Shown: positions 22,688 through 63,159 of the stretch, one piece after another
How the letters are laid out: each line of letters starts with the position of its first letter
How positions within the stretch are numbered: the stretch's first letter is position 1
NCBI GenBank assembly: GCA_963793305.1
Contig: CAWBZV010000005.1
Span: forward strand, 128,001-192,000
Reading direction: 5' to 3'
Length of the DNA: 64,000 nt
From: an uncultured Gemmatimonadales bacterium
GTDB lineage: Bacteria > Gemmatimonadota > Gemmatimonadetes > Gemmatimonadales > Gemmatimonadaceae
The notes under the pieces: generated by a model
Databases searched by the model: none
Told to the model about the DNA's origin: nothing
Seen by the model: only the letters and a program-made list of their open reading frames with translations
Made by a program: the position numbers and the translations under genes

Positions 22688-24148
22688 TGGTCTATCTCGT
22701 TGGCGCGGGACCAGGCGATCCGAGGTTGATCACCGTCCGAGGCCAGGAGCTTCTGGCGACGTGCAATGTCGTGGTCTACGACGCGCTCGTGAGCCCAGGA
22801 CTCTACGCCACCGCCAAGGACGCCCGTGGCGTCGGCAAGCGCGGTGGCGACGACGCCTCGGCGTCCCAAGCTGATATCAACGCGCTCCTCATAGACCTCG
22901 CGCGGGAGGGAAAAAGCGTCGTTCGCCTCAAAGGCGGCGACCCGTTCGTGTTCGGCCGCGGCAGCGAAGAGGCTCAGGCATTGGCGGCGGCCGGCATCCC
23001 ATTCGAGATCGTCCCCGGTGTCACCGCGGGCGTCGCCGCACCAGCCTACGCCGGAATCCCGGTCACCCATCGAGGGATCGCGACCTCCGTTACGTTCGTC
23101 ACTGGCAGTGAAGATCCGAACGAAACCCGATACGCAGACGGAGTGGTCCGCGCTGGCGCGGGTTGGTGGTACGATCGTGTTGTACATGGGCGTCCGTCAT
23201 CTCCGCGAGATCACGGATCGTCTCATTGCAGGCGGTTTGAGTCCGGACACCCCGGCCGCCGGGATACAATGGGGGACGCTGCCGACACAACGCACGGTCG
23301 TCGCCACGCTGTCGACGCTGGCGGCGGCCGATCTGGCATCACCCCTCATCGTCGTCATCGGTCAGACGGTTGACCTGCGCGAGACGATCGCTTGGTTCGA
23401 TCGCCGACCGCTGTTCGGCCGGCGCATTCTCGTGACGCGTGCGTCTCAACGTGTGGGCTCGCTCTCCGATCGCCTGCGCGACGCCGGCGCCAACGTCGTC
23501 GAGATGCCGTCCACGCGCATTTCCCCTCTCGACGCCGCCGCCCTCCACAACGCGATCCGTCGGTTGCCCAGCTATCAGCACGTGCTCTTCACGAGCCAAA
23601 CCGCCGTGGGATTTTTCTGGGACGCGCTTCGCGCGGTCTCACTCGACGCACGTGCGCTCGCCGGCCTCACGGTGACCGCTATCGGTCCAGCGACTGCCGA
23701 TGCGCTCGTCTCCCACGGTATCGCACCAGACGTCATCCCAGATCGGTTCGTCGCCGAGGGTGTAGTCGACGCACTCCGCGATCGCGTCGATGGCGCGCAC
23801 ATATTGTATCCTGCCGCCGAAGGTGGCCGGGACGTCTTGCCGGATGGTCTGCGAGCCGCGGGTGCGACGGTGGATGTGGTACACGTGTATCGCTCTGAGC
23901 CGATCAAAGGCGCGGTCACTCCGGAAGATCTCGATCTCGTGACCTTCACGTCGGCGTCTACTGTGACGGGCTATGTCGAATCAGTAGGCGATGACCAAGC
24001 CCGCCGGGCTCCCGCGGCGACGATCGGGCCGATCACGAGCGACGCCGCGCGAGCGGCAGGAATCACGGTCGCGATCGAGTCTCCGACCGCGTCGATACCA
24101 GCGCTCGTCGAAGCAATTAAGCAGTACTATGCGAATCGGCACACGTAA
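22687..24148 (+). CDS. Uroporphyrinogen-III C-methyltransferase / uroporphyrinogen-III synthase fusion (CobA-HemD), apparent frameshift near 23119
   Basis: VYLVGAGPGDP, RLKGGDPFVFGRG.EE; then RPLFGRRILVTR, AIGPATA, FTSAST. Confidence 0.9.
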
Positions 24149-24977
24149 GTCCGCGCTGGCGCTGGAGCAAGCGCACCAAGTGCAAGCCGCGCTCGCCGCA
24201 CGCGGCGTCGAGAGCGAGCTCGTGCCCTTCACGACGCTCGGCGATCGGCGTCTCGACGCCTCGTTCCTGGAGATCGGCGCCAAAGGCCTGTTCACGAAGG
24301 AGCTCGAAGTCGCCCTCGCGGAAGGGGCGATCGATTGCGCCGTGCACTCGTTCAAGGACCTGCCCACGGACACGGTGGGCGTGGTCGCGGTGCTCCCCCG
24401 CGCGGATCCACGCGATGTCGTTGTCGGCGTCGCGATCGCCGATCTCCCACCAGGATCTCGCGTGGGAACATTGAGCCTGCGTCGCCGGGCGCAACTCAGG
24501 GCGATCCGTCCGGATCTCGAGCTCGTCGAGTTTCGGGGCAATGTCCCGACCCGACTCCGCAAGGTCGCCGAAGGCCAGGTCCGCTCAGCCATTTTGGCCG
24601 CTGCGGGCCTCATTCGCCTGGGTGCGACCCAGCATATCACGGCTTACCTCGACCCGCCGGACTGGCTGCCGGCCCCAGGGCAGGGTGCCATCGCCATTCA
24701 GGCCCGTGTTGGCGGCGATGCCGCGAAAGTGCTCGCGCCGCTCAACGACCCCGACACCATGCGCGATGTGACCGCCGAGCGGTCGATGCTCGCCGCGCTC
24801 GATGGCGGGTGTCAGGTGCCCATTGGCGGCCTGGTTCTGCGCGGCGTCCTATACGGGCTTATCGCCGACGTTGACGGTGCCCGGGTGGTGCGCGGCTCAG
24901 AGCCCGTCGACCCTGCGAATCCGGCCGCCGCCGGACTGGCGCTCGCCGCTAAATTGAGGGAATGGACGCGTTCCTGA
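24129..24977 (+). CDS. hemC: Hydroxymethylbilane synthase
   Basis: [48 protein letters not shown]. Confidence 0.95.
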
Positions 24978-25972
24978 CTGACCGCGAGACCGCCTCATTG
25001 ACGATCCGGCCGCGCCGGCTGCGTCGCACGGCGTCGCTCCGGCGCCTCGTTCGCGAGACCCGCTTGGACCCCGCGCAGCTGGTCCTGCCGGTCTTCGTAC
25101 GCACCGGCGCCAATGTCCGCATTCCCATCTCCTCGATGCCCGGCGTCGCCCAGACGTCGATCGACGAGATGCTGCGCGACGCGAGCGCGGCGGCCGAATC
25201 GGGCGTTGGCGGTGTGATCCTGTTTGGTATCCCGGACACCAAGGACGACGAGGGCTCAGGCGCATGGGACGAGTACGGCGCCGTGCAGCAGGGTATCCGG
25301 GCGCTCAAGCGCGAGTTTCCCGAGCTCGTCGTGATCGCCGACGTGTGCTTGTGTGAGTACACCTCGCACGGTCACTGCGGGATCCTGCGCGACGGCATCG
25401 TCGACAACGATGCCACGCTGCCGCTGCTCGCCCGTGCGGCGTTGTCGCATGCCCAGGCGGGCGCCGACATCGTCGCTCCGAGCGACATGATGGACGGACG
25501 CGTGGCGGCCATTCGCTTAGGCCTCGATGGCGCGGGTCACTCGGACACCGCGATCCTGAGCTACGCGGCGAAATACGCCTCGGCGTTCTACGGGCCATTC
25601 CGCGAAGCGGCCGAGTCGACGCCAAAGACGGGCGATCGCCGAAGCCATCAGATGGATCCCGCGAACGGCGATGAAGCGTTGCGGGAGGTCGCGCTCGATA
25701 TCGACGAAGGCGCCAATGCCATCCTGGTCAAGCCCGCGGGCCCGTATCTCGACATCGTGCACCGGGTCAAGGAAGCCACCGGGTACCCGGTCGCGGCGTA
25801 TCAGGTGAGTGGTGAGTACGCGATGGTGCAAGCGGCGGCCGAGCGGGGTTGGCTCGATGGCGACCGCGCGATGATGGAATCACTGATCGGCATCCGCCGC
25901 GCGGGCGCCGATTTCATTCTGACGTATTTCGCCACGACTGCCGCGCGTCTCATTCGGCGCGGCTGGGAGTAA
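24962..25972 (+). CDS. hemB: Porphobilinogen synthase
   Basis: [46 protein letters not shown]. Confidence 0.97.
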
Positions 25973-25973
25973 C

Positions 25974-28255: not shown

Positions 28256-28707
28256 ACGCGTTCTCCCGTCCCTCGTTCAGCCACACCGGCCAGTCCGGCG
28301 AGGGTGCGCGACGCTATGCCATGCACGAAGACCGGCCCGATGACGCCCCGCGCGGCCAGCCCAGAGATGAGCGGCCAGCGTGGCCCGTCCCACTCATGGA
28401 CAATACGCACGTGCGTCCCATCGCGGCGGGGTGCAAAAGACCAGAGCACGTCCATACCGGTCGTTATTCCCTCGATGTGGCGATAGCGGATTTCGACGTC
28501 CCTTTCGGCATTCATCTCGGACACCCACCGCGTTGGCCAGTTCGCGGGACCAAACGGGCGGTTGGCCGACATCTCGACGATGCCGGTCGTCCGGAATCGC
28601 ACGTAGCGGTAATGCGAAAGCAGTGCCGGCCATCGCTCGACATCGGCGGCCAGGGCATAGATCCGATCGAGCGGAGAGCGCACCAGCTGCTCGTCGATGG
28701 TTTTCAT
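28252..28707 (-). CDS. SRPBCC/START polyketide cyclase-aromatase-like protein
   Basis: IYALAADVERWPALL, WVS, GMDVLWSF, VRIVHEW. Confidence 0.8.
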   Translation of the reverse strand: MKTIDEQLVRSPLDRIYALAADVERWPALLSHYRYVRFRTTGIVEMSANRPFGPANWPTRWVSEMNAERDVEIRYRHIEGITTGMDVLWSFAPRRDGTHVRIVHEWDGPRWPLISGLAARGVIGPVFVHGIASRTLAGLAGVAERGTGERV

Positions 28708-29390
28708 GTTGGGGCCCATGCCGCAGCCACCCGAAATCCCAAATACTCGCGGATGCGCGGCTGGGCGCCGGTGGCCGAGCGCACGATGGTGCCGAGCTCG
28801 CCAGGGGTAAACCCGCGCCGGATGGACATAATGCCGTCGTGGCGGCTCACCGGATGAAACCCGAGCACAAACGAGAATAGCCAGAGCCCGGCTACGGCGA
28901 GGTCGGAACGCAACAGGTCGCTGACAATGACCCCAACCCGAGCCACACGGTTGAGCTCCTGAAGCAACGCGACCGCATCGTGATCGAAGAAGTGATGCAG
29001 CACCTGCGAGCAGATCACGACATTGACGCTGTGACTGGCAAAGGGCAGGAAGCGGCCATCTCCGACGACGGCCGCTCTCATGGACGTGCGTGCCGCCGCC
29101 GCGAGCCACTCGGCTGCCTCGAGCCCCACGGTGTCGAGCGTGACGCCCCTCCGCGCGGCCACCTCGCGCGCGCGGCGCGGAATGTCACCCATGCCGGTCC
29201 CGACGTTCGAGCAACGTCGCCCGTTTGGGCAACGATGGCATGATCGACTCCAGCTCGTACATGACCGCTCGCGTGCCGCCCATGAGCGAATTGGCGAGCA
29301 TGACGTTGCGCAGCGAGCGACGCGCGAGCGCCGGATCGACGTCCGGCGCGTCGAGTATCTCGTCCCCGTCGGGACGGATGCGCGGGTCAG
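28704..29390 (-). CDS. SAM-dependent methyltransferase, frameshifted in this sequence
   Basis: EILD..RSL..N..GG, LLDVGTGMGD (after removing one base near 29206), LPF, LHHF, SDLLR, HDG..SIRRGFT; start uncertain. Confidence 0.82.
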   Translation of the reverse strand: MTRASVPTGTRYSTRRTSIRRSRVARCATSCSPIRSWAARERSCTSWSRSCHRCPNGRRCSNVGTGMGDIPRRAREVAARRGVTLDTVGLEAAEWLAAAARTSMRAAVVGDGRFLPFASHSVNVVICSQVLHHFFDHDAVALLQELNRVARVGVIVSDLLRSDLAVAGLWLFSFVLGFHPVSRHDGIMSIRRGFTPGELGTIVRSATGAQPRIREYLGFRVAAAWAPT

Positions 29391-36583: not shown

Positions 36584-36680
36584 GGGGGGTCCGGGGGGCG
36601 TAGTTGGGGTTGCCCCCCGGAGGCGAACCGACCAGTCGAGCAGCGCGTAGCGCTGCATCGACGAGCCGCGGAGCGGCTCA
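36584..36680 (-). repeat. About 97-bp multi-hairpin dispersed repeat, copy 1 (REP/MITE-like)
   Basis: Reverse complement matches 63157-63254 with two substitutions and one indel. Confidence 0.92.
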
Positions 36681-43735: not shown

Positions 43736-44574
43736 GCTCGAGCGTCAGCGAATCGAGCCGGGCGACGAGCGAGTTGACGTGGTTGTAGAGCTCCGGATCG
43801 TTCACGAGCTTGCCGGCGCTGCCGCCGCCCGTGTCGATTTTCGCGACGAGCGCATCGAGATGCGAACGTCGTATTCGACAGATTGCTGGTCAGCGTCGTC
43901 AGGTTCGCGCTCGACGTGCGGATGTTCTTCACGGTCGAGTCGATCGCCGATGAGTCGACGGCCGACACGGCGCGGTTGAGCGAAGCCATTGTCCGGTTAA
44001 GGGCCTTCGATTGGTCCGTGGCGATCTGGCTCAGCGTCTCCACGAGCTTGTTCGCGTTGTAGAGCGTCTTCCGCAGGTCGCCGATCGCGCCGCCCTGCAC
44101 GAGCTCGACCTGTACGGCCTTGGTGACGTCGCCCAGCTGACCGCCGATCGAGTCCATTTTCATGATCAGATCGCCGATGCCCGGCGCCGGCGCAGCCGTC
44201 GGAATCGTGTCGTTCTTCGCGATGTATTGGGTGGTCGGCCGCGCCGGTTTGAGCGCGACCTCCATGTCCCCGAACAACCCGTTTGGCTCGATCGCCGCCA
44301 CGGTGTTGACCGGGATCCGGTACTTGTTCTCGATCGAGAGCCGCACGCTCACGGTCCCATCGGGCACCAATTCGACGTTGTCGACATAGCCGACGCTCAC
44401 GCCGGACAAGAGCACCGGCTGCCCTTGCTTGACGCCCGCGCCCCACCGGAACCGGGAATACAGCGGATAGCCCGACGAGAGCCCGCCCCGGATCAAGTAG
44501 ACCGTGCCGAAGACCAGGACGAGGATCGCGACCGCGGTCACCAGTCCGACCAACACTGCGTCGCGTCGTCTCAT
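43689..44574 (-). CDS. mlaD: MlaD/MCE family protein, apparent frameshift near 43865
   Basis: GVKQGQPVLLSGVSVG.V, GLFGD; corrected C-terminus GSAGKLVNDPELY...HPGKFVPPIHIF*. Confidence 0.85.
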
Positions 44575-48268: not shown

Positions 48269-48287
48269 TCGCTAAATTCCGTGAGCC

Positions 48288-49209
48288 TTGAGACCAATTT
48301 CAAGATCAAGAACTTTGGGCATCTTCCTTTGCGCGATCACAGTGTTCGGTGCGTGCGGTCACGGTGCGGCGCACACGCCGTTCGACGGTCGTGCCGCGCT
48401 CGCGCTCATCCGCACCCAACTCGACTTCGGACCGCGCATTCCGGGCACTGATGGCGCGCTTCGCTGCGGCGACTGGATCGTCGCGACGATGGCGAAGAGC
48501 GCGGACACCGTGATTGTCCAAAGCTGGACGCATACGACCGTCCGGGGCAAACAACTCCCCCTTCGCAACATACTCGCTCGGTATCGCCCCTCGGAGACGA
48601 ATCGCGTGCTGTATGTGACGCACTGGGACACGCGGCCGGTCTCCGACGAGGCGACCGACCCGGCCGAGCGGAGCCAGCCCGTCCCGGGGGCGAACGATGG
48701 CGCATTGGGGACCGCCTTGCTCATGGAGCTCGGCGCCGTCCTCGCCAAGACGCCGCCCACCTATGGCGTCGACCTGCTCTTTGTCGACGGTGAGGACTAC
48801 GGCACGTTCACACCCGAGCACGACGTCCTCCTCGGCTCCACCTATTTCGCGTCGCATTCTGCCGTCGTCCGATTATCGGCCCATCTTCGGCATTCTGTGG
48901 GACATGATCGGGGATCGAGACCTCCAGATCTACGAGGAGGGCAACTCCCTCCAGCAGGCTCCCGAGGTCGTCCAGCGCGTGTGGCACGCGGCCGGGGACC
49001 TCGGGTACGCCGACTACTTTGTACCCCGCTACAAGTACACGGTCACGGACGACCACGTGCCCTTGCTCAAGGCCGGCCTGCGCGTCATTGACGTGATCGA
49101 CTTCGACTACCAGGGGGTCCACCACACGCCCCGGGACACCTTCGACAAGGTCTCGGCCGCCTCGCTCCAGATCGTCGGCGACGTAGCGACCACCCTCGTT
49201 ACACAATAG
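48288..49209 (+). CDS. M28 peptidase / glutaminyl-cyclase-like lipoprotein, apparent frameshift near 48857
   Basis: FGPRIPGT, HWDTRP, GANDG, FVDGEDYG, DMIGD, DDHVP, HHT..D. Confidence 0.88.
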
Positions 49210-49220
49210 CGGAAGGCGGT

Positions 49221-49248
49221 GGGGGGTCCGGGGGCGTGACGCCGCCGG
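49221..49248 (-). repeat. Partial copy (right module) of the hairpin repeat family
   Basis: ggggggtccgggggcg-tga-cgccgccgg matches the GGGGGGTCCGGGGGGCG end of the full copies. Confidence 0.55.
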
Positions 49249-49365
49249 CAAAATGGGCGTCCTGCAAGTGCGGCGCCCCCATGGGGCGTATCGCGTTCAT
49301 TTGTTTCGCACTTTGCGCCCCGCCCCTGTGGATCAATCGCTCGCCCTTATCCCGAGTGGACACTC

Positions 49366-51189: not shown

Positions 51190-52367
51190 GCGGTACAGCC
51201 GCACCAGCCGCAACGACCGCCGCACCGCCAGGCGGCGGCGTCAACCTGCGCGCCCTACTCGAGGAGATGATCGAGCGCGACGCGTCAGACCTCCACATCA
51301 CCGCCGGTGAGCGACCCAAGCTGCGCATCGACGGCGAGATCACCAACTCGCGCAACGAGTACGTGATGTCGCCGAAAGACACGCTGACGCTCGCCTACTC
51401 GGTGTTGACGGAAAATCAGAAAAAACGCTTCGAACAAGAAGATGAGCTGGACTTCTCGTTCGGTATCCAGAACCTCGCTCGTTTCCGTGGCAATTGCTTC
51501 AAGCAGCGCGGCTGCGTATCGATGGCGATCCGGCAGATCCCGTTCTCGATCAAGACGTTCCAGGATCTGGGATTACCAGCCGTCATCGCCAAGATGGCCG
51601 AGAAGCCCCGCGGTCTCGTGCTCGTCACAGGTCCCACGGGGTCGGGCAAATCGACGACCCTCGCGGCGATGATCGACAAGATCAACCGCGAGCGCCGTGG
51701 CCACATCATCACGGTCGAAGACCCGATCGAGTTTATCCACCGCCATCAAAACTGCATCGTCAATCAGCGCGAAATCGGCACGGACACGAAGTCGTTCCAG
51801 ATGGCGCTCAAGTACGCGTTGCGCGAAGACCCCGACGTGATTCTGGTCGGCGAGATGCGCGACCTGGACACGATCCAGGCCGCGCTCACCATTGCCGAAA
51901 CGGGCCACTTGGCATTCGCCACGCTGCACACGAACTCCGCGGCCGAGGCGATCAATCGTATGATCAACGTCTTCCCGGCGCACCAGCAGTCACAGGTCCG
52001 CGCGCAGCTGGCGTTCGTGCTCGAAGGCATCATCACGCAGACGCTCCTCGCCAAGGCGAAGGGGCGGGGCAGAGCCATGGCCGCCGAGATCCTGGTGGTC
52101 ACGCCCGCGATCCGCGCGCTCATCCGCGACGACAAGATCCACCAGATCTATTCGTCGATGCAGTCGGGCAAGAAATTCGGCATGCAGACGCTGAACAATG
52201 CCCTGTATGCCTTGTACATGTCACGCGAAGTCTCGACGGACGAGTGCCTCCGCGTGTCCAGCGACCCGAACGAGTTCTTGCGCATGATCGGACAGCCGCC
52301 GCTCGACGAGGCTGGCGATGCAACGAAGGCGACTAACGGGAAACCCGCAGCAACCGGTCGCCGGTAA
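51186..52367 (+). CDS. pilT: Type IV pilus retraction ATPase PilT
   Basis: SDLH, GPTGSGKST, EDPIEF, LREDPD, AETGHL, AIRALIR, GMQT. Confidence 0.95.
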   Translation: MSGTAAPAATTAAPPGGGVNLRALLEEMIERDASDLHITAGERPKLRIDGEITNSRNEYVMSPKDTLTLAYSVLTENQKKRFEQEDELDFSFGIQNLARFRGNCFKQRGCVSMAIRQIPFSIKTFQDLGLPAVIAKMAEKPRGLVLVTGPTGSGKSTTLAAMIDKINRERRGHIITVEDPIEFIHRHQNCIVNQREIGTDTKSFQMALKYALREDPDVILVGEMRDLDTIQAALTIAETGHLAFATLHTNSAAEAINRMINVFPAHQQSQVRAQLAFVLEGIITQTLLAKAKGRGRAMAAEILVVTPAIRALIRDDKIHQIYSSMQSGKKFGMQTLNNALYALYMSREVSTDECLRVSSDPNEFLRMIGQPPLDEAGDATKATNGKPAATGRR

Positions 52368-52392
52368 GACCCCTTTTTCCAGGATTTGAACC

Positions 52393-53595
52393 ATGCCGCA
52401 GTTCACCTACACGGCGCGAGCGGTCAACGGCGAGTTGAAGACGGCGACCATCGACGCCGCGACGCGCGAAGATGTCGTCGCCCAACTGCGCCGCCAGCGG
52501 CTCACGGTCGTCAAGGTCGACGACGCGGGCGACCAGAAGAAGAAGCCGAGCGGTGGCGGGATCAAGATGCGAGACATCGTCATCTTCACCCGCCAGTTCT
52601 CGACGATGATCAACTCCGGTCTGCCGCTGGTGCAGGCGCTGGACATTCTCGCCAAGCAGAGCGAGAACAAACAGCTCCAGGCCGTCACCCGGGCCGTCGT
52701 GTTCGACGTCGAATCCGGCCATACCGTCGCCGACGCACTCCGCAAGCACCCGAAAGCGTTCAGCGACCTGTATGTGAACATGGTCGCGGCCGGTGAGGCG
52801 GGCGGTATTCTCGACACGATCTTGATGCGCCTCGCGACCTTCATGGAAAAGAACGACAACCTGGTCCGCAAGGTCAAAGGCGCGATGATCTACCCCGGCG
52901 TCATCATGTCGGTCGCCGCCATCGCCATCTCGATCCTGCTGATCTTCGTCATTCCGGTGTTCGAGAGCATGTTCGGCCAGGTCGGTCTCGCCCTGCCGCT
53001 GCCGACGCGTATCGTGATCGGTCTCTCGGCCTTCCTCCGTGGCATGGGTGGCATATTCGTGGTCGCGGGCGCCATCGGCGGGGGCTTCTTGATCAAGCAG
53101 TACTACGCGACGCCGAACGGCAAGCTGCAGATCGACAAGCTGATGCTCGGCTTCCCGGTCCTCGGCGACGTGCTCCGCAAGTCGGCCGTGTCCCGATTCA
53201 CCCGCACGCTCGGCACGCTGATCAGCTCCGGCGTCAGCATCCTCGATGGGTTGGAGATCACGGCCAAGACGGCCGGTAACCGCGTCATTCAAGACGCGAT
53301 CATGGCTTCCCGCACCTCGATCGCTGGCGGTGACACGATCTCTGCTCCGCTCGCCAAGTCCGCCGTGTTCCCGCCCATGGTGATCTCGATGATCGCCGTC
53401 GGCGAGTCGACCGGTGGTCTCGACGAAATGCTCTCCAAGATCGCCGACTTCTACGATGAAGAAGTCGACGCGGCCGTCTCGGGCTTGCTCTCGCTGCTCG
53501 AGCCGGTCATGATCGTGTTCCTCGGCGTGGTCGTCGGCGGCATGGTCGTCGCCATGTACCTGCCGATCTTCGACATGATCAACGCGGTGCAGTAA
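52393..53595 (+). CDS. pilC: Type IV pilus platform protein PilC (GspF family)
   Basis: FTRQFSTMI.SG, AGE.GG.LD, GAMIYP, GE.TG.LD.ML, MYLPIF. Confidence 0.95.
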   Translation: MPQFTYTARAVNGELKTATIDAATREDVVAQLRRQRLTVVKVDDAGDQKKKPSGGGIKMRDIVIFTRQFSTMINSGLPLVQALDILAKQSENKQLQAVTRAVVFDVESGHTVADALRKHPKAFSDLYVNMVAAGEAGGILDTILMRLATFMEKNDNLVRKVKGAMIYPGVIMSVAAIAISILLIFVIPVFESMFGQVGLALPLPTRIVIGLSAFLRGMGGIFVVAGAIGGGFLIKQYYATPNGKLQIDKLMLGFPVLGDVLRKSAVSRFTRTLGTLISSGVSILDGLEITAKTAGNRVIQDAIMASRTSIAGGDTISAPLAKSAVFPPMVISMIAVGESTGGLDEMLSKIADFYDEEVDAAVSGLLSLLEPVMIVFLGVVVGGMVVAMYLPIFDMINAVQ

Positions 53596-53628
53596 CCTCG
53601 CGGTAGTCGAAGTCGCCGGCCCGCCTCC

Positions 53629-54750
53629 GTGAACGAGCGATACATCCCGACGCTCGACGGATGGCGGGCCGTCGCCATCCTGCTCGTCATTGGTGACCAC
53701 CTTTTCGCTTCCGCCGTAGGCTCGCCATCGGGTCGCACGACGCTTCCCGGGCAACTCGGCGTCAATATTTTCTTCGGCCTGAGCGGGTTTCTCATCACCT
53801 CCCGCTTGTTGGCCGAGCAGCCGATTTCCCTCGGCCGGTTCTACATCCGGCGGGCCTTTCGGATCCTCCCGCCGGCGCTGGCATATCTCGCTGTCCTCGG
53901 CACGCTCGGATCACTCGGGCTCATCCCGCTCTATCCGCGCGAGCTGCTGGCCGCCGCATGCTTCTTTCGCAACTACTTGCCACCGAATCTGCCGCTCGGC
54001 GGCGGATTCTATACGTGGCACTTTTGGTCGCTGGCCATCGAAGAGCACTTCTATCTTTTCTGGCCGCCATTACTCAAGCGCGTCCGCGGCTCAGCGCTCG
54101 TTGTGTCTATTGGCGTGGCCATCGCCGGAGCAGCGTGGCGGATGATCGAGTTGTTGCGCGAGGGGCACCTCTATGGCCACACGCTCGTCGGGTTCCCCTG
54201 GCGAACCGACATTCGTATCGATGCGCTCATGTGCGGCGCGGCAGTCGCGATTGCGTATGCGAACCCGCGGGGCCGGGCGTGGCTCTCGAACCGGTTCGGA
54301 TGGGTACTCGCGGCCGTATTGTACGGGCTCGTCGTCGCGCGATACGGCGTACGGCCGACGATTTGGCAATCGGCGTTGATCCCAATGCTCATCGCCGGCA
54401 CCGTCGCTCGGCCGAGGGACCCGGTTGGCCGAGTCCTCGACGCGGCACCGATCAGATGGCTTGGCCGGCTTTCGTACAGCCTGTACTTGTGGCAACAACT
54501 CTGGTTGCCGCCGAGCTGGTTCCCCCACACGCTCGGCGTCGCGCAGACGTGGCCGCTGAATGTCCTGTGCGTCCTCGCCTGCGCGACCGCCAGCTATTAC
54601 CTCATTGAGCGCCCGTCAATCCGGCTCGGTCAGCGGCTGGCACGAGCATACGAGGTTCCGGTCACCGTAGGCGCCATCGACGCGCCCGACCGTCGGCCAG
54701 AACTTGTGATCGCGCGTCCAAGCGGCGGGATACGCGGCACGCTGCCGTGA
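53629..54750 (+). CDS. Acyltransferase family 3 (OafA-like)
   Basis: [55 protein letters not shown]. Confidence 0.92.
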
Positions 54751-57473
54751 GTACGGCCGGTTCCACACATCGGCGGTAATCACCGCCGCGGTGTGCGGCG
54801 CCCGCTTGAGCACATTGTCATTCCGATCGGCCGTGCCCGCCTCGATCTCGCGGATCTCTTCGCGGATCGCCAGCATCGCGTCGCAGAACCGATCGAGCTC
54901 CTCGCGCGACTCGCTCTCCGTCGGCTCGATCATGAGCGTGCCGGCCACGGGGAACGACACGGTCGGTGCGTGGAAGCCGTAGTCCATGAGGCGCTTGGCG
55001 ATGTCCACGACATCCACGCCAGCCGACGCCTTGAACGCGCGCGGGTCGACGATGCACTCGTGTGCGACCAGCCCAGCCGCCCCCGTATAGAGCACCGGGA
55101 ACGCACCAGCCAGCCGGTGCGCGACATAGTTCGCGTTCAGTATCGCCACCTTCGTCGCCTTGGTCAGCCCGGCTCCGCCCATCATCGCGATATACGCGAA
55201 GGAAATCGGAAGGATGCCCGCGCTTCCGTACGGCGCCGCCGAGACGGCGCCAATGCGCTCCGGCAAGAACGGCGCGAGCTCACTGGTGACGCCGATCGGC
55301 CCGACGCCCGGTCCACCGCCACCATGCGGGATGCAGAACGTCTTGTGCAAGTTGAGATGGCACACATCGGCGCCAATGTCCCCCGGCCGCGCCAGCCCAA
55401 CCATGGCGTTCATGTTCGCGCCATCCATGTACACCCTGCCGCCGGCCGCGTGCACGAGATCGCAAATTTCTTTGATGCGCGTCTCGAACACCCCATGCGT
55501 CGAGGGATACGTAATCATGAGGGCAGCAATGTGTTCCCTATGCTGTTCGATTTTTGCCTGCAGATCCGCCACATCGACGTTCCCGTGCGCGTCGGTCGCG
55601 ACCACGACCACGGGCATATCGGCCATAGCAGCCGACGCGGGATTGGTCCCATGAGCCGATTGGGGTATCAAGCAGAATGTTGCGCTTGGTGTCGCCCCGT
55701 GCCGCGTGGAAGCCCTTGATCACGAGCAACCCGGCGTACTCGCCCTGCGATCCAGCGTTGGGCTGCACGGAAACCGCGTCGAACCCCGTGATCGTGGCTA
55801 GCGCGCTCGATAACCGCCCGATAAGCTCGGCGTACCCGGCCGCCTGCTCGGGTGGCGCGAACGGATGCATCTCCGCAAATCCCGGCCACGAAATGGGCAG
55901 CATCTCAGCCGTGGCATTGAGCTTCATCGTGCACGACCCCAGCGGGATCATCAATGTCGTGAGCGACAAATCGCGCGTCACGAGCCGGTGGAGATATCGC
56001 ACCATGTCGCTCTCCGACCGGTGCGTGTTGAACGCGGGATGCGTGAGAAACGGCGTCGCGCGCGCAAACCGCTCGTCATACCGCGCATCGACCGTCTCCA
56101 ACAGCAACTCGGCCCCAACCGGCGCCGCCGGCCCGCCATTCAGCGCCGCCAGGATGTCGTCGACATCAGCCGGCGTCGTCAGCTCGTCGAGCGTCACCCC
56201 GAGACTCCCGTCCTCGTACACGCGCAAATTCATGCGGCGCGCCGCGGCCGCCGCCGTCACGGCCGGCAACGTCCGACCTGCCGGCGTCACCCGAATCGTG
56301 TCGAAGAAGATGTCGTGCTCCACCGTGAGCCCCAGTCTCCGCGCACCCTCCGCCAGCGCCTCGGTCAGCCAATGCACCCGCGTGGCGATCCGCGTCAGAC
56401 CCTCCGGGCCATGCCACACGGCGTACATGCCAGCCATCACCGCCAGCAACACCTGCGCGGTGCACACATTGCTGGTCGCGCGCTCGCGCTTGATGTGCTG
56501 CTCGCGCATCTGCAGGGCCATGCGCAGGGCAGGGTTGCCGTCCGCGTCATGGCTCAAGCCGATGATGCGGCCGGGGATGAGACGCTTGAACTCCTCGCGC
56601 GTGGCGAAGTACGCGGCATGGGGTCCGCCGTACGCCATGGGCACGCCAAACCGTTGGGTGCTCCCCACGGCAATGTCGGCACCCCACTCGCCCGGAGGCG
56701 CGAGCAGCGTCAGGCTGAGCGGATCGGCGGCGACCACCAGCAGCGCACCAGCCCGATCCGCCGCCGCACGCAACTCCCGGTAGTCGTAGACAATACCATC
56801 AGTCGCCGGATACTGAACCAGCACACCGAAACAGCGATCCGGCAGCTTCTCGCGATGATCCCCAATGATGATCCGAATGCCGCGAGCCCGCGCGCGGGTC
56901 GACACGACAGCGATCGTCTGCGGATGGCATGTGTCCGAGACAAAAAAAGTATCTTTGTGGCCGTCATTGCTGCGCGCCGCTTGAGCCAGCGACATCGCTT
57001 CGGCCGCGGCGGTGGCTTCGTCCAACAGCGACGCGTTCGCCACCGGAAGACCGGTGAGATCGATAATCATCGTCTGGAAAATCAGCAGCGCTTCCAGAAC
57101 GTCCTTGCGCGACTTCGGCCTGGTATGGCGTGTACGCCGTATACCAGTTGGGGTTTTCGAGAATATTCCGCCGGATAACGGGCGGCAGGATGCACCCGTG
57201 ATAGCCCTGTCCGAGGAATGACCGCCAGACCTGATTCTGCCCAGCGATGCGCGCCAACTGGGCCAGCGCCTCGGCCTCGGTCTCGGCCTCTCCGATCGCC
57301 AGCGGTCGCCGTGAGCGAATGCTCTCGGGGATGACCGCGTCGATAAATGCATCGAGAGATTTATAGCCCAGCGCGGCTACCATGGCGCGGATGTCATCAT
57401 CGCGCGGACCAATGTGCCGCGAGGCGAACTGGTCGGACTCGGCCGGCATCGCCGGCGCAGTGGTTATCGTCAC
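54616..57473 (-). CDS. gcvP: Glycine dehydrogenase (single-chain P protein), two apparent frameshifts near 55676 and 57098
   Basis: [58 protein letters not shown]. Confidence 0.96.
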
Positions 57474-58579
57474 GAGGGTTTGCGTTTCGGGGGATGAGAC
57501 GTGCGATAAAAGGGCAGACTGACCGTGGTCGCCGGCACTCGCCGACCACGAATGTCGATCTCGATCGTTGTACCGGCTTTTGCCTGGGCCGTAGGCAGAT
57601 ACGTGGTGCCGATCCCATACCCCAGCGTCGGGCTCATGATGCCACTGCGGACGCAGTCGACGGTCTGGCCGTCGCTCAGCACCGAATACCCGTGGCGCGG
57701 CACGGCGCGCTCGTCAATGCGAAACCCGACGAGCTTCCGAGCCGCCCCCTGCGCTTTCTGGGCGACCAGCACGTCCTTCCCGAGAAACCGGGGCTTGTCG
57801 AGCTTCGCCGTCCAGGCCAACGACGCCTCGATCGGCGTCACGCTGTCATCGATATCATTGCCATACAACATGAGACCGGCCTCGAGTCGCAGCGAGTCGC
57901 GCGCTCCGAGGCCGGCGGGTACCGCGCCGTCGATCGCGAGCAGCGCATCCCACACGGTCGTCGCATGCGCGGCGTCGAAATAGAGCTCGACGCCATCCTC
58001 GCCCGTATATCCCGTGCGCGAAACCAGCGCATGCACGCCAGCCACCACGGCGTGCGTGAAGTGATAGTACAGCACGTCGTCGAGCGACGTCGGCGTCATC
58101 GCGCGCATCACGGCCCCCGACGCTGGCCCCTGTACGGCGATGAGCGCGGTCTGATCCGAGATGTCCTCGATCGCGCAGTCGAATGATCCGACGTAGCGCC
58201 GCATGTGCTCGACGTCTTTGTCGCGATTCGAGGCGTTGACCACGACCATGACGCGATCGGCGAGCCGATACACGAGGCAGTCGTCGACGATGGTGCCGTT
58301 CTCGTTCAGGATGGTCGAGTACTGCACCTGGTTGACCGCCAATCGTCCCGCGTCGTTCGATGTGATGAAATCGACGAACGCGACCGCATCGGGGCCGGTC
58401 ACCATGACTTCGCCCATGTGGCTGACGTTGAATACCCCACACCGTCCGCGTACCGCGTGGTGCTCCGCGGTCATCCCTGGCGGATACGCCAGTGGCATTT
58501 CATACCCCGCGAACGGGACCATCTTTGCGCCGAGCGCGACGTGTCGCTCGTAGAGCGCCGTATGTCTAAGTGTTGTCAC
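57470..58579 (-). CDS. gcvT: Glycine cleavage system aminomethyltransferase
   Basis: FAGYEMP, VSHMG, SRTGYTGEDG.E, GLGARD.LRLEAG, SPTL, PFY. Confidence 0.96.
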   Translation of the reverse strand: MTTLRHTALYERHVALGAKMVPFAGYEMPLAYPPGMTAEHHAVRGRCGVFNVSHMGEVMVTGPDAVAFVDFITSNDAGRLAVNQVQYSTILNENGTIVDDCLVYRLADRVMVVVNASNRDKDVEHMRRYVGSFDCAIEDISDQTALIAVQGPASGAVMRAMTPTSLDDVLYYHFTHAVVAGVHALVSRTGYTGEDGVELYFDAAHATTVWDALLAIDGAVPAGLGARDSLRLEAGLMLYGNDIDDSVTPIEASLAWTAKLDKPRFLGKDVLVAQKAQGAARKLVGFRIDERAVPRHGYSVLSDGQTVDCVRSGIMSPTLGYGIGTTYLPTAQAKAGTTIEIDIRGRRVPATTVSLPFYRTSHPPKRKPS

Positions 58580-58619
58580 ACGTGACAAAGATGCCGCCAT
58601 TGACACCTTCGATCAACGA

Positions 58620-59006
58620 TCACGAGCGACGCCCACGCCAATCGTCGAGGAGACGCCGGTCCTTTTTGGTCGGACGGCCTTCGCGCTCGTAAGTGGGAAC
58701 GGGCGCTGTCCGCATCTGCGCCGCCAGCGCCTTACGCGCCGCGATGCTCTCCGGAAGCTCCTCATAGAGCTTGGCAGCCTCAACCGCCGGCCCGCGGCGC
58801 TCCGACAAGGCTTTGACGACGAGAATGACCTCGAATGGCGGTTGCCGGACGCGCACGCGGTCGCCGACACCTAACGCTTTGGCCGGCTTGGCTTTATCGC
58901 CGTTGACCTCGACGCGCCCATTTTCGATTGCCGCAATGGCCAGGCTGCGCGTCTTATACCACCGCGCAGCCCATAACCATTTGTCGAGCCTGGTCTTGTC
59001 ACTCAT
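58620..59006 (-). CDS. hslR: S4-domain ribosome-associated heat shock protein Hsp15
   Basis: RLDKWLWAAR.YKTRSLA, RRGPA..A..LY, GRPTKKDRR. Confidence 0.93.
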   Translation of the reverse strand: MSDKTRLDKWLWAARWYKTRSLAIAAIENGRVEVNGDKAKPAKALGVGDRVRVRQPPFEVILVVKALSERRGPAVEAAKLYEELPESIAARKALAAQMRTAPVPTYEREGRPTKKDRRLLDDWRGRRS

Positions 59007-59030
59007 TGTCGCTAATATATACAGATTGCG

Positions 59031-60317
59031 ATGACCGTTACTGCTTCTCAGCCTTCTATAGAGCACACGCTCTTTCCCTCGGCAAATCGTACGGCGGCGT
59101 TCCGGCTCGATCTCGGGCGTACCGAGCTTCCGAGCCACCGTCTCCGCCCTAAGGCCGAGGTCGGTGTTCTCGACATCACGAAGTGGTTCGGCGAGACCAG
59201 CGGTGGCGTCCGGACGTACCTGCTTGAAAAAGCGCGGTACGTCGAGGCCCACACCGACATTCGCCAGGTCCTCGTCATCCCCGGGGCACGCGACTCGATC
59301 ACACAAAGCACGGGTGTCCGCTGTTATCGCTTGCGCGGTCCTCGTGTGCCGACGCAGCGACCCTATCGCTTCATGCTGGCGACTCGGTCTATTCGTCGGA
59401 TCATCCACCACGAATCGCCGTCCATCATCGAAGTCGGGAGCTGCTTCCTGGTCCCCTGGATCACAGCCCACGCCGCCAAGAAGTCCGACGTCCCGCTCGT
59501 GTTCTTCTATCACAGCAATCTGCCGCGCAGCATCTGTGCGTTTCCGGAACGCTCCTCCCGTACCCGCCAGCGCGCCCACGCCTTGGCCTGGCGCTACATC
59601 CGCAAGCTCGACTCCTTGTTCGAGCTCACTATCTGTGCGTCCCGGTCCGCGGCCGACGACCTGCAATCGCACGGCGTGGATCGAGTAGAGCGCGTCCCAC
59701 TCGGCGTCGACCTGGATCACTTCAACCCATTCCGCCGCTACCAGTCGGAAGAGACGAGAGAGCGCCTTGGGCTGCCGCTCGACGCTCCGGTCGTCGCGTT
59801 CATTGGGCGGTTTGCGAGAGAGAAAGAAGTCGATGTGTTGATCCGCGCATGGCCGGAGATCGCCCGCCGGACGGACGCGCACCTGCTCATGGTCGGTGAC
59901 GGTCCCCAGCGCGAGCGTCTGCAAGGCCTGGCCGAAAGCCACGAGCGAGTCCTGTGGATGCCATACGAGCACGATCGCGAGCAACTCGCCAACCTTCTTG
60001 CCGCGGTCGATCTCTTCGTCGCCCCAGGCTCGATCGAGACGTTCGGCCTCTCGGCGCTCGAGGCGCTGGCGTCAGGCACTCCGGTGCTGTCGGCCGACCG
60101 AGGCGGAGTCTCCGAGCAGATCGAGGCGTCAGGCGCCGGCTCGACGTTCACCGCCGGCGACCCGGGTTCGCTGAGTGAGACCGCGATCGACCTGCTTGGC
60201 GCCGATCTCTTAGGGCTAGGGCGCCGCGGCCGCGCGTATGCAGAGCGCGAGCATTCCTGGGACGGCGTGTTCGATCGCATCTTCGATATCTATCGCCACG
60301 TCCTGGCCGCCGCCTGA
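59031..60317 (+). CDS. Glycosyltransferase family 4
   Basis: SGGVRTY, GRFAREK, GDGP, ETFGLSALEALASG. Confidence 0.9.
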   Translation: MTVTASQPSIEHTLFPSANRTAAFRLDLGRTELPSHRLRPKAEVGVLDITKWFGETSGGVRTYLLEKARYVEAHTDIRQVLVIPGARDSITQSTGVRCYRLRGPRVPTQRPYRFMLATRSIRRIIHHESPSIIEVGSCFLVPWITAHAAKKSDVPLVFFYHSNLPRSICAFPERSSRTRQRAHALAWRYIRKLDSLFELTICASRSAADDLQSHGVDRVERVPLGVDLDHFNPFRRYQSEETRERLGLPLDAPVVAFIGRFAREKEVDVLIRAWPEIARRTDAHLLMVGDGPQRERLQGLAESHERVLWMPYEHDREQLANLLAAVDLFVAPGSIETFGLSALEALASGTPVLSADRGGVSEQIEASGAGSTFTAGDPGSLSETAIDLLGADLLGLGRRGRAYAEREHSWDGVFDRIFDIYRHVLAAA

Positions 60318-61033
60318 CCGCGCTCCTCGTCTCCATCCATGATGTGACGCCGGCGTTGGCGTCGCGCGTCGAGGCGCTCTGGGCCCTCTGCGCGGCCCGC
60401 GGCGTCACGCCTGCGCTACTCGTTGTACCGAATTGGCACGGGGACTGGCCCCTGGAGCGCTATCCCGACTTCGTGCAGTGGATACGGTCGAGGGCCAAAG
60501 ACGGCGCCGAGGTATTTCTCCACGGCGAGCGTCACGACGAGGTCGGATCTCCACGAGGATGGCGTGATCAGTGGCGCGCATTCGGGAAGACGGCTCGGGA
60601 GGGAGAGTTTCTGACGCTCGAGGCCCCGGCCGCCCGGGAACGGGTGGAACGGGGACTTGCGCTGTTCGCGCGGTTGGGACTGGACCCCATCGGGTTCATT
60701 CCCCCCGCTTGGCTCGCGCGCGATTCCTGCGTTGGCGTGATCGGAGCACTCGGCCTGAAATTCTACGAGGACGATGCGATCGTCACGAACTGCGCCAGTC
60801 AAACGCATTACCCGTCCCCCGTGGTCCGTTGGAGTGCTCGCACGCCGTTGCGTGCGAGGGGATCGGCGCTGGTCGCCGAGTGGCGTTGGCGCGCGCAGCG
60901 CGCCGAGCGCTATGCAAGAATCGCCTTGCACCCGAGCGATCTGGACAGCCCGATCACGGCGCGCTCAGTGGAACACTCGCTCGACCGGTGGGTTGCCGCG
61001 CGACGGCCGACCCGATATCAAGACCTTGCCTGA
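60314..61033 (+). CDS. Polysaccharide deacetylase-like protein (DUF2334-like)
   Basis: VSIHDVTP, LLVVP, LHG..H, GEF, GFIPPAW, RIALHP.D; start uncertain. Confidence 0.8.
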   Translation: MTALLVSIHDVTPALASRVEALWALCAARGVTPALLVVPNWHGDWPLERYPDFVQWIRSRAKDGAEVFLHGERHDEVGSPRGWRDQWRAFGKTAREGEFLTLEAPAARERVERGLALFARLGLDPIGFIPPAWLARDSCVGVIGALGLKFYEDDAIVTNCASQTHYPSPVVRWSARTPLRARGSALVAEWRWRAQRAERYARIALHPSDLDSPITARSVEHSLDRWVAARRPTRYQDLA

Positions 61034-61036
61034 CCC

Positions 61037-61948
61037 GTGCTGAGCACGGCCGCGGCCCTCGCACTCTGTCTCGGCCTGTTCACGGCCGACCACCTCGCGC
61101 GCGCATGGCGCGTTCAAGTCTTAGCGAGAGGGCTGGGCAATCGCACGCCTTTTATCAAAGCGTTCGCGCTGAACGCGGCGAGCGATGCGACGTCCGCCCT
61201 GACGCCGCTCAAGCTCGGCGGCGAGCCCGTGCGGTTCGGCGGATTGATCAACGCGGGCCTCAATGTATCCGACACGATCGCGCTGATCAGCGTCGAGGCG
61301 ATCATCGAATGGGCCGTCGTGATCACCCTCGGCGTCTCGATCTTCTGGCACTGGGGCGGGGCATGGTGGCGCACGCAGCAGCAAGTGCTGCTCCCGCGCT
61401 TGGGGCACGCGATCCCGTGGGTGGCGCTGATTGTTGTCGTGGGCATCGCGATCCTGTTCGGCTTCAGAAAATTCCTGCCGCAGGTCTCGATGTACGTCGG
61501 GGGAACGCTCCGCGACTCGATCCGCCTCGCGCGCCGAATGCCGTTCTGGGCAGTTGCCGCAACGGTACCCATCACGGCGCTTCACGTCGTCGCCCGCATC
61601 GCGATTCTGCCGGCGGTCTTCGCCACGCTCTCCAATCCACCGGCGCTCGGGACGGTTGTCGTCGGATCATTCGTGCTCCTCTACGGCCAGAATTTCCTGC
61701 CGACGCCCTCCGGAGCCGGCGCGATCGAGCTGGGATTCCTGGATGGCGCGGCGGGGTATGTCGGACCCGAGGCGGGCGCGTTGCTCGTCACGTGGCGGTT
61801 CTACACGACGCTGTTGCCCATCGTGCTCGGCCTCGTGTTCGGCACGGCGATGTACGCCCCGGTGCTGCATCGCATCGCGCGCTTCGTCCTCTTACGGCGG
61901 CGCCGAGCGCGCCGCACATTGCAACGTGACAACGACGCTCCGGGCTGA
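61037..61948 (+). CDS. Lysylphosphatidylglycerol-synthase TM domain / flippase-like membrane protein
   Basis: RAWR, TP..LGGEP, PTPSGAG..E, TWRFYT. Confidence 0.82.
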   Translation: MLSTAAALALCLGLFTADHLARAWRVQVLARGLGNRTPFIKAFALNAASDATSALTPLKLGGEPVRFGGLINAGLNVSDTIALISVEAIIEWAVVITLGVSIFWHWGGAWWRTQQQVLLPRLGHAIPWVALIVVVGIAILFGFRKFLPQVSMYVGGTLRDSIRLARRMPFWAVAATVPITALHVVARIAILPAVFATLSNPPALGTVVVGSFVLLYGQNFLPTPSGAGAIELGFLDGAAGYVGPEAGALLVTWRFYTTLLPIVLGLVFGTAMYAPVLHRIARFVLLRRRRARRTLQRDNDAPG

Positions 61949-63159
61949 CCACGACTCCGGGCGCGCCGAGGCGGCGACCGAGCTCCGGCTCGCGCTGTTC
62001 ACGGACACGTATCCGCCACAACTGAACGGCGTGTCGCGCACCCTCGAGCGCCTGGTTTCGGCGGTACAGGCACGTGGCGGTTCCGCTCGGGTGTACACGA
62101 CGACAGATCCTGAAGTCACGACGCGGTCAAGCGACATTTGGCGACGCCCGAGCATCCCATTCTGGGCCTACCCGCAACTCCGTCTCGCGCCTCCCGTCGG
62201 TGGCCGCATCTATCGCGACTTGTTGGCGTGGCGACCGACGTTGATCCACGCGGCAACACCGTTTGGCATGGGGCTCACGGGTCGTGCGTGTGCGCTGCGC
62301 CTCGGCGTTCCTCTGGTGACGTTGTACCACACGTCATTTAGCGAGTACGCGCGATTTTATAATCTGGGATTGTTAAGTGGCCTTGGGTGGGCGTTCTTCC
62401 GTTGGTTCCACAATACGGGGCAACGCACCTACGTCCCGACGCGCGCGATCGCCGATGAGCTGGGCCGTCTCGGGTTCGCACGTCTTGCGGTCTGGGGGCG
62501 GGGGATCGAGATGCAGCGGTTCAATCCGCTATATCGCTCCGCCGCGTGGCGCCAGCGACTGGGCGCCGACGACGATACGATCGTCGTGGCCTACGTGGGC
62601 CGCCTGGCCGCTGAGAAGGGGTTGGACGTTCGCGCTCTCCGCCATGCAGAGCCTCGCGTCCAACCGCCGGATCCGTTTCGCCCTGGCCGGCGACGGCCCC
62701 TACGCCGACCATTGCCGCCGCGCGGCGCCGGGCAATGCCATGTTCACCGGCCGCATCGTCGGCGAAGACCTGAGCGCATTCTACGCGTCGGCCGATCTCT
62801 TCATGTTCCCATCGACGACGGACACCTTCGGCAACGTGTTGCTCGAAGCGATGGCCTCGGGACTCCCCGTGATTGCCGCCGATGTCGGACCGACGCGCGA
62901 GCTACTGGCGAGCGGCGGTGGCGTCACGTTCCCAGCGAGCGACGCTCACGGGTTGGCCGCCCAGATCCTCGCGCTCGCCAGCGATCCGGCGCGTCGCCAT
63001 GCGCTCGCGGCCGAAGGGTTACACGCGGCGCAGAACTGCTCCTGGGACCGCATCTTCGATGCGCTCATCGCCGACTATCGTCAGGTGTCGACCGAGCCGC
63101 CCGTATGGCCCCGCCGGGCGATCACTCATACGAAGACTCGTCCGCTCTCTCGACGCTGA
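61926..63159 (+). CDS. Glycosyltransferase family 4 (MgtA/PimB-like), apparent frameshift near 62629
   Basis: FTDTYPPQLNGV, HAATP, YVGRLAAEKG, GDGP, FPS.TDTFGNVLLEAMASG. Confidence 0.9.

Follow-up and report, generated by a model that had tools for sequence, protein, structure and literature searches.

The window, a 64,000-nucleotide stretch of the species-representative genome of an uncultured soil bacterium of the Gemmatimonadales (G000; 92% complete, in 26 contigs, the longest of 1.6 Mb), carries a set of genes in which residues that are normally conserved appear to have been exchanged. Nine of the affected sites were named by gene in a first-pass annotation, which described conserved Asp and Ser residues as replaced by Asn and Leu, and the gene families of all nine are backed by Pfam matches (TP_methylase, Porphobil_deam, ALAD, Methyltransf_11, Peptidase_M28, T2SSE ATPase, GDC-P, GCV_T, and Glyco_transf_4). 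The listed changes are present at all 11 coordinates as CAAYG or CRTTG, with peptides as written, including CNVVVYD in cobA, GTLSLRR in hemC, SVNVV in the methyltransferase, NDGALG in the M28 peptidase, MINVFP in pilT, TLMIPLGS in gcvP, FNVSHMG in gcvT, and VTLYHT in the GT4 gene. The gene at 29024 matches no DNA methyltransferase family. Further substitutions and one-base insertions occur in the same window (Table 1), together with one frameshift (23118) that lies at GACG, outside both of the motifs defined below.

Table 1. Substitutions and one-base insertions at the two motifs in the window, with the state of each site in same-genus relatives (G001, G003, G004, G005) and in DNA runs X1 to X4
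Position	Strand	Motif	Change	Gene	Evidence
22765	+	GATG	A for G, false Asp→Asn	cobA-type tetrapyrrole methylase (PF00590)	G in G001, G004, G005; another codon in G003
24472	+	CATC	T for C, false Ser→Leu	hemC (PF01379)	C in 4/4 relatives
25715	+	GATG	A for G, false Asp→Asn	hemB (PF00490)	G in 4/4 relatives
29024	-	GATG	false Asp→Asn	class I methyltransferase-domain gene (PF08241)	Asp base in 4/4 relatives
29307	-	GACGTC	false G→A	same gene region as, and upstream of, motif frameshift 29207	4/4 relatives
48706	+	CATC	T for C, false Ser→Leu	M28 peptidase	4/4 relatives; C in X1, X2, X4 (X3 no coverage)
51966	+	GACGTC	A for G, false Asp→Asn	pilT-type ATPase	4/4 relatives; G in X1-X4
52197	+	GATG	A for G, false Asp→Asn	pilT-type ATPase	4/4 relatives; G in X1-X4
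55953	-	CATC	false Ser→Leu	gcvP	4/4 relatives; restored in X1-X3 (X4 no coverage)
58429	-	GACGTC	false Asp→Asn	gcvT	4/4 relatives; restored in X1-X4
62323	+	GACGTC	T for C, Ser→Leu, probably false	GT4 glycosyltransferase	C in 3/3 covering relatives
56371	-	CATC	false Arg→Trp, missed in first-pass annotation	gcvP	restored in X1-X4
45965	-	CATC	false silent change		restored in X1-X4; window's letter in G003
55528	-	CATC	false silent change	gcvP	restored in X1-X4
62138	+	CATC then T	false C→T, outside the first-pass CRTCG pattern		C in X1-X4, G001, G003, G004, G005
48857..48858	+	CATC	extra base, false frameshift	M28 peptidase	absent in X1-X4 and 4/4 relatives
55676..55677	-	CATC	extra base, false frameshift	gcvP	absent in X1, X2 and 4/4 relatives
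57098..57099	-	GACGTC	extra base, false frameshift	gcvP	absent in X1-X4 and 4/4 relatives
62629..62630	+	GACGTC	extra base, false frameshift	GT4 gene	absent in X1-X4 and 3/3 covering relatives
43865..43866	-	GACGTC	extra base		gap in G001, G003, G004
29206..29207	+	GACGTC	extra base		gap in 4/4 relatives
19377	-	CATC	extra base		gap in 4/4 relatives
503..504	+	CATC	extra base		gap in G001, G005

Four same-genus genomes cover the 11 listed sites in 43 site-by-genome cells; the letter of the window is found in none of these, the expected C or G in 42, and another letter in one (G003 at 22765). A second comparison comes from DNA runs X1 to X4, whose library type is not on record and which were read as contigs over positions 44,001 to 64,000. 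The population sampled by X1 is nearly identical to the window genome, differing at 23 letters over long pieces that total about 19.9 kb, at a depth of about 10 (about 99.9% alike). Its contigs restore Asp or Ser at no fewer than five of the six listed sites compared, hold the conserved base at each of the six amino-acid-changing motif sites listed in this comparison, with X2 to X4 in agreement where they cover, and are free of four motif insertions present in the window assembly. Within the same interval, at least 8 of the 13 changed motif sites are restored in X1. Judging from piece counts, X1 apparently shares three silent motif changes (55375, 57716, and 59804), so that not every motif change appears to be an error. 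At 45965, the occurrence of the window's letter in G003 is consistent with that genome's own GATG errors. Site 53594, which differs in X1, has no motif and was dropped. RNA runs contained only 5–9% of the sequence words.

Conserved bases in both X1 and the relatives bear out the earlier proposal of miscalling rather than real residues, and the odd Asn and Leu residues are almost certainly an assembly artefact, whatever its cause. The annotation had named two observations that would count against it, namely relatives with the same Asn and Leu residues or substitutions as frequent outside the motif; the relatives lack these residues and such changes are rare outside the motif, so that the proposal stands.

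The contexts in which the changes occur were derived from comparison of assembly with assembly, not from reads. All-site nucleotide counts against G001 and G004 show enrichment of CATCG but are diluted by silent divergence, and codon-aware counts were used instead; by these, CRTCG is changed at 136/2761 sites as against 861/135317 elsewhere, and the change is one-way (forward 136/2761, reverse 12/1090). Relative to related genomes, Asp→Asn is found at 100/2014 in CGAYG and 19/5249 outside (odds ratio 14, p 5e-38), and Ser→Leu at 24/496 in the motif context and 7/2672 outside (odds ratio 19, p 3e-14). The claim that the changes always pass through CGAYG therefore holds as a strong excess rather than as a rule (100 of 119 Asp→Asn and 24 of 31 Ser→Leu changes in the genome sample), and the context itself is narrower than claimed, as CGATG and CGACGTC carry the signal while the remaining CGACG sites are at background. 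GACGTC is changed at 52/184 sites compared with 4/1639 for its one-base variants, making the target exactly GACGTC, and a single palindrome GAYRTC was ruled out by the TGTCG context (4/1060). For GATG/CATC, the signal is seen with 15 of 16 flanking dinucleotides, so this core looks to be four bases, not five, with the flanking base modulating the error rate. The real motifs are thus GATG/CATC and GACGTC.

At both motifs the affected base is always the G before A, and the error takes the form of G→A (mostly after C) or of an inserted A (chiefly following A or C). The wrong call is found at about 8% of CATCG sites and about 28% of those with GACGTCG, and the signal is present in all 10 contigs over 80 kb. 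As had been claimed, substitutions fall at the same base as the one-base frameshifts, where 61 of 84 clean one-base insertions are located. The further suggestion that the substitutions are independent support for a GAYG-core modification system does not follow, because substitutions and frameshifts come from one assembly; independence is provided instead by run X1 and by the other genomes. Rates of amino-acid-changing and silent change are equal at the motifs (80/938 versus 135/1707, p 0.60; 47/165 versus 24/112, p 0.21), whereas control NNTCG sites show a tenfold gap (31/11430 versus 327/12022, p 3e-61), and the equality implies that no purifying selection acted at the motif. The genome-wide load is estimated at about 3,900 false substitutions and several hundred frameshifts, or about one error per 1,300 bases.

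Damage of this kind is seen in at least two further genomes of the family from the same collection, both few-contig assemblies. In G003, of the same genus, only GATG is affected (62/359 versus 1/72), and in G034 a GACGTC signal (17/58) accompanies a GATG signal that is weak or absent (10/304 versus a background of 1.3%; 3/87 versus 25/704 in another count). This separation, along with the background level of CGTCG outside GACGTC, is at odds with the single GAYG-core system first proposed; two specificities are needed. In three other genomes, G026, G007, and G016, neither motif shows a signal over the 200 kb compared in each (0/13 and 0/3; 1/19 and 1/36; 0/17 and 1/49, respectively), but these genomes are uninformative because their platform is not known and the counts are small. 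Over 41 genomes, the ratio of CGACGTTG to CGACGTCG is highest in G000 (1206/684 = 1.76, against 0.58–0.83 in the same genus), but as G006 (1.48) and G027 (1.07) are also high, the ratio cannot map enzymes.

Family searches, which recovered PF02086 and PF00145 enzymes missed by a regular-expression hunt, give five candidate methyltransferases in G000. Three conserved enzymes are encoded there at C4:116398-117483, C2:48215-49066, and C4:75608-78868. The PF02086 enzyme is a lone gene that matches PADLOC type II methyltransferase models, is kept in five of five same-genus genomes, and has an intact ortholog in G034 despite the weak or absent GATG signal there; its protein has no PDB match. A PF01555 enzyme of the N6/N4 family carries the motif DPPY, which is typical of 6mA rather than 4mC enzymes; its PDB matches are to generic methyltransferases only. 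Plasmid matches are uninformative as to specificity. No ortholog of it was found in G003 or G034, where the only PF01555 matches are frames of 748 and 960 residues; both genomes do encode adenine methyltransferases, from families PF02086 and PF07669. Pairing the PF01555 enzyme with GACGTC and the PF02086 enzyme with GATG fitted G000 and G003 but not G034, where the GACGTC signal is present without the PF01555 ortholog; the presence and absence of enzymes in G003 and G034 give no one consistent assignment to motifs.

The artefact is probably a nanopore-type miscall of the G just before N6-methyladenine at both motifs. The errors would have entered the consensus of a long-read assembly of native DNA, most likely one made by nanopore sequencing; the platform of G000 is not on record, and its type is inferred from the contig number and lengths given above and from the error signature. 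Methylation of the A, giving G(6mA)TG and G(6mA)CGTC, would shift the pore signal; in reads of the methylated strand the G in front would then be called as A, or the A would be called twice, with the wrong call winning the consensus at a fraction of sites. The marks would be the work of two adenine methyltransferases of the genome. Modification-mediated nanopore assembly errors are already published as a class. In the portions of these reports available, G/A ambiguity is given the minimal motif RA/TY (Lohde 2024, PMC11610573), and G2A errors are described as arising on the G strand (Liu 2024, PMC11610603) and as concentrated at methylated motifs (bioRxiv 10.64898/2026.01.14.699587). As far as these and two related reports (Chiou 2023, PMC10687267; Biggel 2024, 10.1101/2024.07.12.603236) describe them, such errors share with those of G000 the G→A/C→T form at short genome-specific motifs, the G directly before A (RA/TY), a load per genome that runs to thousands of mismatches, near Q30, and absence from independent data (here X1). 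The indifference to protein constraint expected of such errors is likewise seen in G000, in the equal rates at silent and amino-acid-changing sites. The motifs differ, being GATG/CATC and GACGTC here and GCAGC, GCTGG, GAAGAC, GCWGC, GATC, and CCWGG in the accessible text of those reports; in addition, the organism here is uncultured and one-base insertions at motif sites are prominent. GACGTC is also the palindrome of M.AatII, which makes G(m6A)CGTC according to the part of the source available (Clark 2012, PMC3287169); the adenine methylated by this enzyme directly follows the G that is miscalled here. Here the site is known from assembly errors, and it is not avoided in relatives G001 and G004 (observed/expected 0.95), which gives no sign of a cognate restriction enzyme.

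A less likely source of the same artefact is modification of a cytosine in the opposite strand (CAT-4mC and GACGT-4mC), or of both strands as in Listeria GAAG6mAC/GT4mCTTC. This C pairs with the base that is miscalled, and the PF01555 enzyme of G000 belongs to an N6/N4 family, but its DPPY motif and the failure to find its ortholog in G003 or G034 argue against 4mC. Of 50 motifs in Listeria, the dual 6mA/4mC motif alone raised error rates strongly, in the part of the report available (10.1101/2024.07.12.603236). 5mC is unlikely because a PF00145 enzyme was found in none of the five genomes tested, G003 and G034 included (94% and 96% complete).

Error of the basecaller or polisher from sequence context, with no DNA modification involved, is improbable. 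A G→A bias is described as persisting in amplified DNA in the accessible text of one report (10.64898/2026.01.14.699587), the flanking base does modulate the rate, and the pipelines of G000, G003, and G034 could differ; against this, GACGTC is affected at 28% while its one-base variants stay at background, and genomes of similarly high GC content differ in whether they show both motifs, either one alone, or none. Slightly less credible still is a non-methyl modification of G or of the backbone, such as phosphorothioate, 7-deazaguanine, or an unknown base. The miscalled base is G itself, and, in the part of the source available, untrained modifications left nanopore genomes of Q26–32 with thousands of mismatches, a load similar to that of G000 (PMC10687267); however, in the 92% complete genome no DndD exceeded the cut-off and the TGT family is represented by a single gene, which matches strongly over its full length and leaves no further member as a DpdA candidate, while ordinary adenine methyltransferases are present.

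Real mutation is very hard to sustain, whether by deamination of methylated cytosine, which had been offered as a lesser option, or by a deaminase that acts on CRTCG in the lineage. The change is C→T on either strand, a 5mC methyltransferase adjoins a Vsr gene in G000, and the three silent changes seem common to the window and X1. Yet the nearly identical X1 population has the conserved bases, no purifying selection is evident at the motif, deamination inserts no bases although most clean insertions are at the same base, and G003 and G034 show the signal with no 5mC enzyme. Least plausible of all is a correct DNA sequence with the message repaired by RNA editing or recoding: A-to-I editing could mimic Asn→Asp, but it does not account for Leu→Ser on the opposite strand or for the silent changes and the insertions that fall at the same base, and DNA runs X1 to X4 already carry the conserved base.

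If the errors do reflect methylation of the adenine after the miscalled G, they may expose an undescribed methylome of the Gemmatimonadaceae, in which, tentatively, the lone genus-conserved adenine methyltransferase marks the four-base asymmetric GATG/CATC. Adenine methylation of GGATG or GATGC by FokI/StsI/SfaNI-type enzymes, and M.NlaIII-type D12 enzymes, involve an asymmetric GATG/CATC core. That core is shared here, with the PF02086 enzyme of G000 as a candidate only; unlike the five-base sites of the FokI/StsI/SfaNI type, it looks to have four bases, and the candidate is a lone gene conserved in five of five same-genus genomes. GATG/CATC sites number about 12 per kb and show no avoidance, and such a mark would suggest a regulatory or housekeeping role of the Dam or CcrM kind, not one in restriction. 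The enzyme's target might then shift between genera, from GATG in the genus of the window to GACGTC in G034, and errors in public assemblies could be mined to map methylation specificities in uncultured lineages.

As biology, the Asn and Leu residues mean nothing, as they are not a real feature; two short motifs in the DNA of this soil bacterium are probably methylated. Their value lies in a quality warning and a methylome lead, a side benefit for Gemmatimonadota, on which a literature search found no methylome study. Where an odd catalytic residue, a split gene, or a fusion is reported from G000, its position should be inspected for GATG/CATC or GACGTC. The break in brxL of G000 is not at a motif; those in BREX-1 brxC and pglX lie at GATG/CATC or GACGTC sites.

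All eleven sites at which the first-pass annotation read asparagine for aspartate or leucine for serine do carry CAAYG or CRTTG, Pfam agrees with the gene families named there, and the observation itself is confirmed. When the window was aligned with the syntenic regions of four genomes from its own genus (G001 and G004 at ~92% identity, G005 at 81%, G003 at 76%), 43 site-by-genome cells were covered, of which 42 have the expected C or G, one another letter and none the window's letter. Among the CATCG and GACGTCG sites where covering close relatives have C or G, 38 are changed in the window and 356 intact, and eight one-base insertions lie at the same position as the substitutions. Independent evidence comes from four public metagenome runs (X1-X4; the runs matching the window are soil or unlabelled), compared as contigs rather than reads with window positions 44001-64000. 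In X1, a near-identical population, eight long pieces over ~19.9 kb differ from the window by 23 letters and 5 gaps. Changed motif sites number 13 in this interval, and X1 restores at least eight, including, among the X1 rows listed, five of the six first-pass sites located there; three silent changes (55375, 57716, 59804) are apparently common to X1 and the window, as judged by per-piece counts. Extra bases at 48857, 55676, 57098 and 62629 are absent from X1, and X2 and X3 (from X1's study) and X4 (more distant, from a different study) agree with X1 wherever they cover. As X1 also has ~10 non-motif differences from the window, it represents a very close population, not the same DNA. The window's letters at these motif sites are wrong, and the Asn and Leu residues are not a real feature. 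Compared with X1, X2 and X4, the window lacks one base at 63613, in a CATC site; the motif may be subject to deletions too.

The single GAYG system first proposed gives way to two motifs. CATCG is affected behind 15 of the 16 possible upstream dinucleotides (2-18%), and the remaining one is represented by three sites; CGTCG is affected only as GACGTCG (52/184), the remaining 15 prefixes yielding 4/1639. The motifs also part in other genomes. In G003 (one contig, 475 kb tested), Asp to Asn changes occur at 62/359 CGATG (~17%), 1/72 CGACGTC and 59/3386 sites elsewhere; in G034, from another genus (five contigs, 560 kb), CGACGTC is affected at 17/58 (~29%) and CGATG weakly, at 10/304 versus a 1.3% background. 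G001 gives a signal at neither motif (CGATG 2/565, CGACGTC 1/112), nor do G007, G016 and G026, with small counts only. Such genome specificity of the motif favors a mark made by an enzyme over a simple sequence-context error. In G001/G004 both motifs occur about as often as expected (observed/expected 0.95 and 1.02), with no avoidance of either. At either motif, a following G favors substitution and a following T insertion; the former accounts for the leading C of the first-pass pattern. The same kind of false Asp to Asn change as in the studied genome, G000, which homolog names place in Gemmatimonadaceae, is seen in two other members of the family, G003 (L027-L030, L103-L122) and G034 (L133-L142, L174-L191). 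A one-base frameshift at window position 23118, absent from relatives, splits cobA-hemD at a GACG that belongs to neither motif; it may mark a third one or be an ordinary error. In two further genomes, G014 and G036, CGACGTCG is 7-9 times commoner than its reversed control (1588 versus 176; 2179 versus 296), an excess that may merely reflect Asp-Val codon pairs.

Codon-aware counts drew on G001 (0.50 Mb) and G004 (0.42 Mb), with genes called by a purpose-made codon model and 640 of 799 kept at ≥88% alignment to G000. Amino acid-changing C to T differences on either strand number 136/2761 at CRTCG versus 861/135317 at other sites, and the reverse change 12/1090 at the motif versus 895/106731 elsewhere. 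Asp to Asn accounts for 100/2014 in CGAYG versus 19/5249 outside, and Ser to Leu for 24/496 versus 7/2672. Amino acid-changing and silent differences are equally frequent at CATCG (80/938 versus 135/1707, p 0.60) and not distinguishable at GACGTCG (47/165 versus 24/112, p 0.21), whereas the control NNTCG is strongly filtered (31/11430 versus 327/12022, p 3e-61). Because selection filters real fixed mutations and leaves the motif changes unfiltered, deamination of a methylated cytosine, the lesser option of the first-pass annotation, is rejected. Its preferred origin, miscalling, is supported by the X1 contigs, the relatives and the lack of selection at the motifs. Among 94 one-base insertions in genes, 84 have clean flanks, and 61 of these 84 lie at CRT^TC. 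The excess extends to all ten G000 contigs >80 kb (GACGTTG share 0.38-0.54 versus 0.20-0.28 in four relatives). Extrapolated to G000 (5.72 Mb, 65% GC, 26 contigs, the largest up to 1.6 Mb, 92% complete), it amounts to ~2,800 + 1,000 false substitutions and several hundred false insertions.

The wrong letters are located at the G preceding A within GATG and GACGTC, and the G000 cell would carry G(6mA)TG and G(6mA)CGTC. Such modification-related errors are already well known, and nanopore is presumably the platform used. G/A confusion at modified sites with minimal motif RA/TY (PMC11610573), located on the G strand (PMC11610603), is described for nanopore reads, as are error excesses concentrated at methylated motifs that may pass half of reads (10.64898/2026.01.14.699587), Q26-32 genomes from modifications on which the basecaller was untrained (PMC10687267) and a hotspot at GAAG6mAC/GT4mCTTC (10.1101/2024.07.12.603236). 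The A of GACGTC is the methylation target of M.AatII (PMC3287169). Among the papers listed in literature searches, no title or abstract opening described a Gemmatimonadota methylome or either motif as written, a weak suggestion that such a methylome is undescribed. A study of two marine Gemmatimonadetes genomes found no motifs in them (PMC8919816), and in another paper G6mATG is only a star site (10.1101/2023.06.07.544091). The value of the finding is as a quality warning for the assembly and a methylome lead.

The window contains no candidate DNA methyltransferase; G000 has five elsewhere, one each of the PF02086, PF01555 and PF07669 families, BREX-1 PglX and a 5mC enzyme beside Vsr. Of these, the PF02086 enzyme, presumably of NlaIII/FokI-type likeness, is present in 5/5 same-genus genomes and 15/41 searched genomes including G000; G034 carries it yet has little GATG signal. 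The 41-genome tallies include unpublished G012, on which alone no claim hangs. The PF01555 enzyme has strong orthologs in G001, G004, G005, G013 and G026, and none was found in G002, G003 or G034. With enzyme and GACGTC signal both missing from G003, it had seemed to make the GACGTC mark, but G034 has the signal without an ortholog. The PF07669 family is matched in 39/41 genomes, nearly the whole order, at ~1,000-1,100 residues, with SAM and NPPW motifs intact in five compared copies, making it a candidate order-wide orphan methyltransferase. 5mC is argued against by the lack of a PF00145 match in G003 and G034. Neither DndD nor a second TGT gene was found in G000.

Features of G000 and of the window
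Feature	Location	Remarks
Window	G000:C5:128001-192000	
Motif sites restored in X1	window 45965, 48706, 51966, 52197, 55528, 55953, 56371, 58429	
Changed motif sites outside X1 rows listed	window 50419, 62323	
Intergenic repeat, ~95 bases	window 36584-36677 and 63160-63255	REP-like
PF02086 enzyme	G000 C4:116398-117483	362 residues
PF01555 enzyme	G000 C2:48215-49066	284 residues
PF07669-family methyltransferase	G000 C4:75608-78868 (L196:5608-8868)	1087-residue frame
BREX-1 island	G000:C3:725368-738414 (L194:5368-18414)	brxC, pglX, pglZ, brxL; NCBIfam
5mC methyltransferase with Vsr	G000 C3:740307-742330	also matches DruM models; follows the BREX-1 island

In the BREX-1 island, brxC and pglX are both split at the CATC/GATG extra-base pattern, so that the organism itself may have both genes whole; the break in brxL has no motif. 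The intergenic repeat has many copies in G001, G004 and G005, and read depth of the public runs against the window spikes there.
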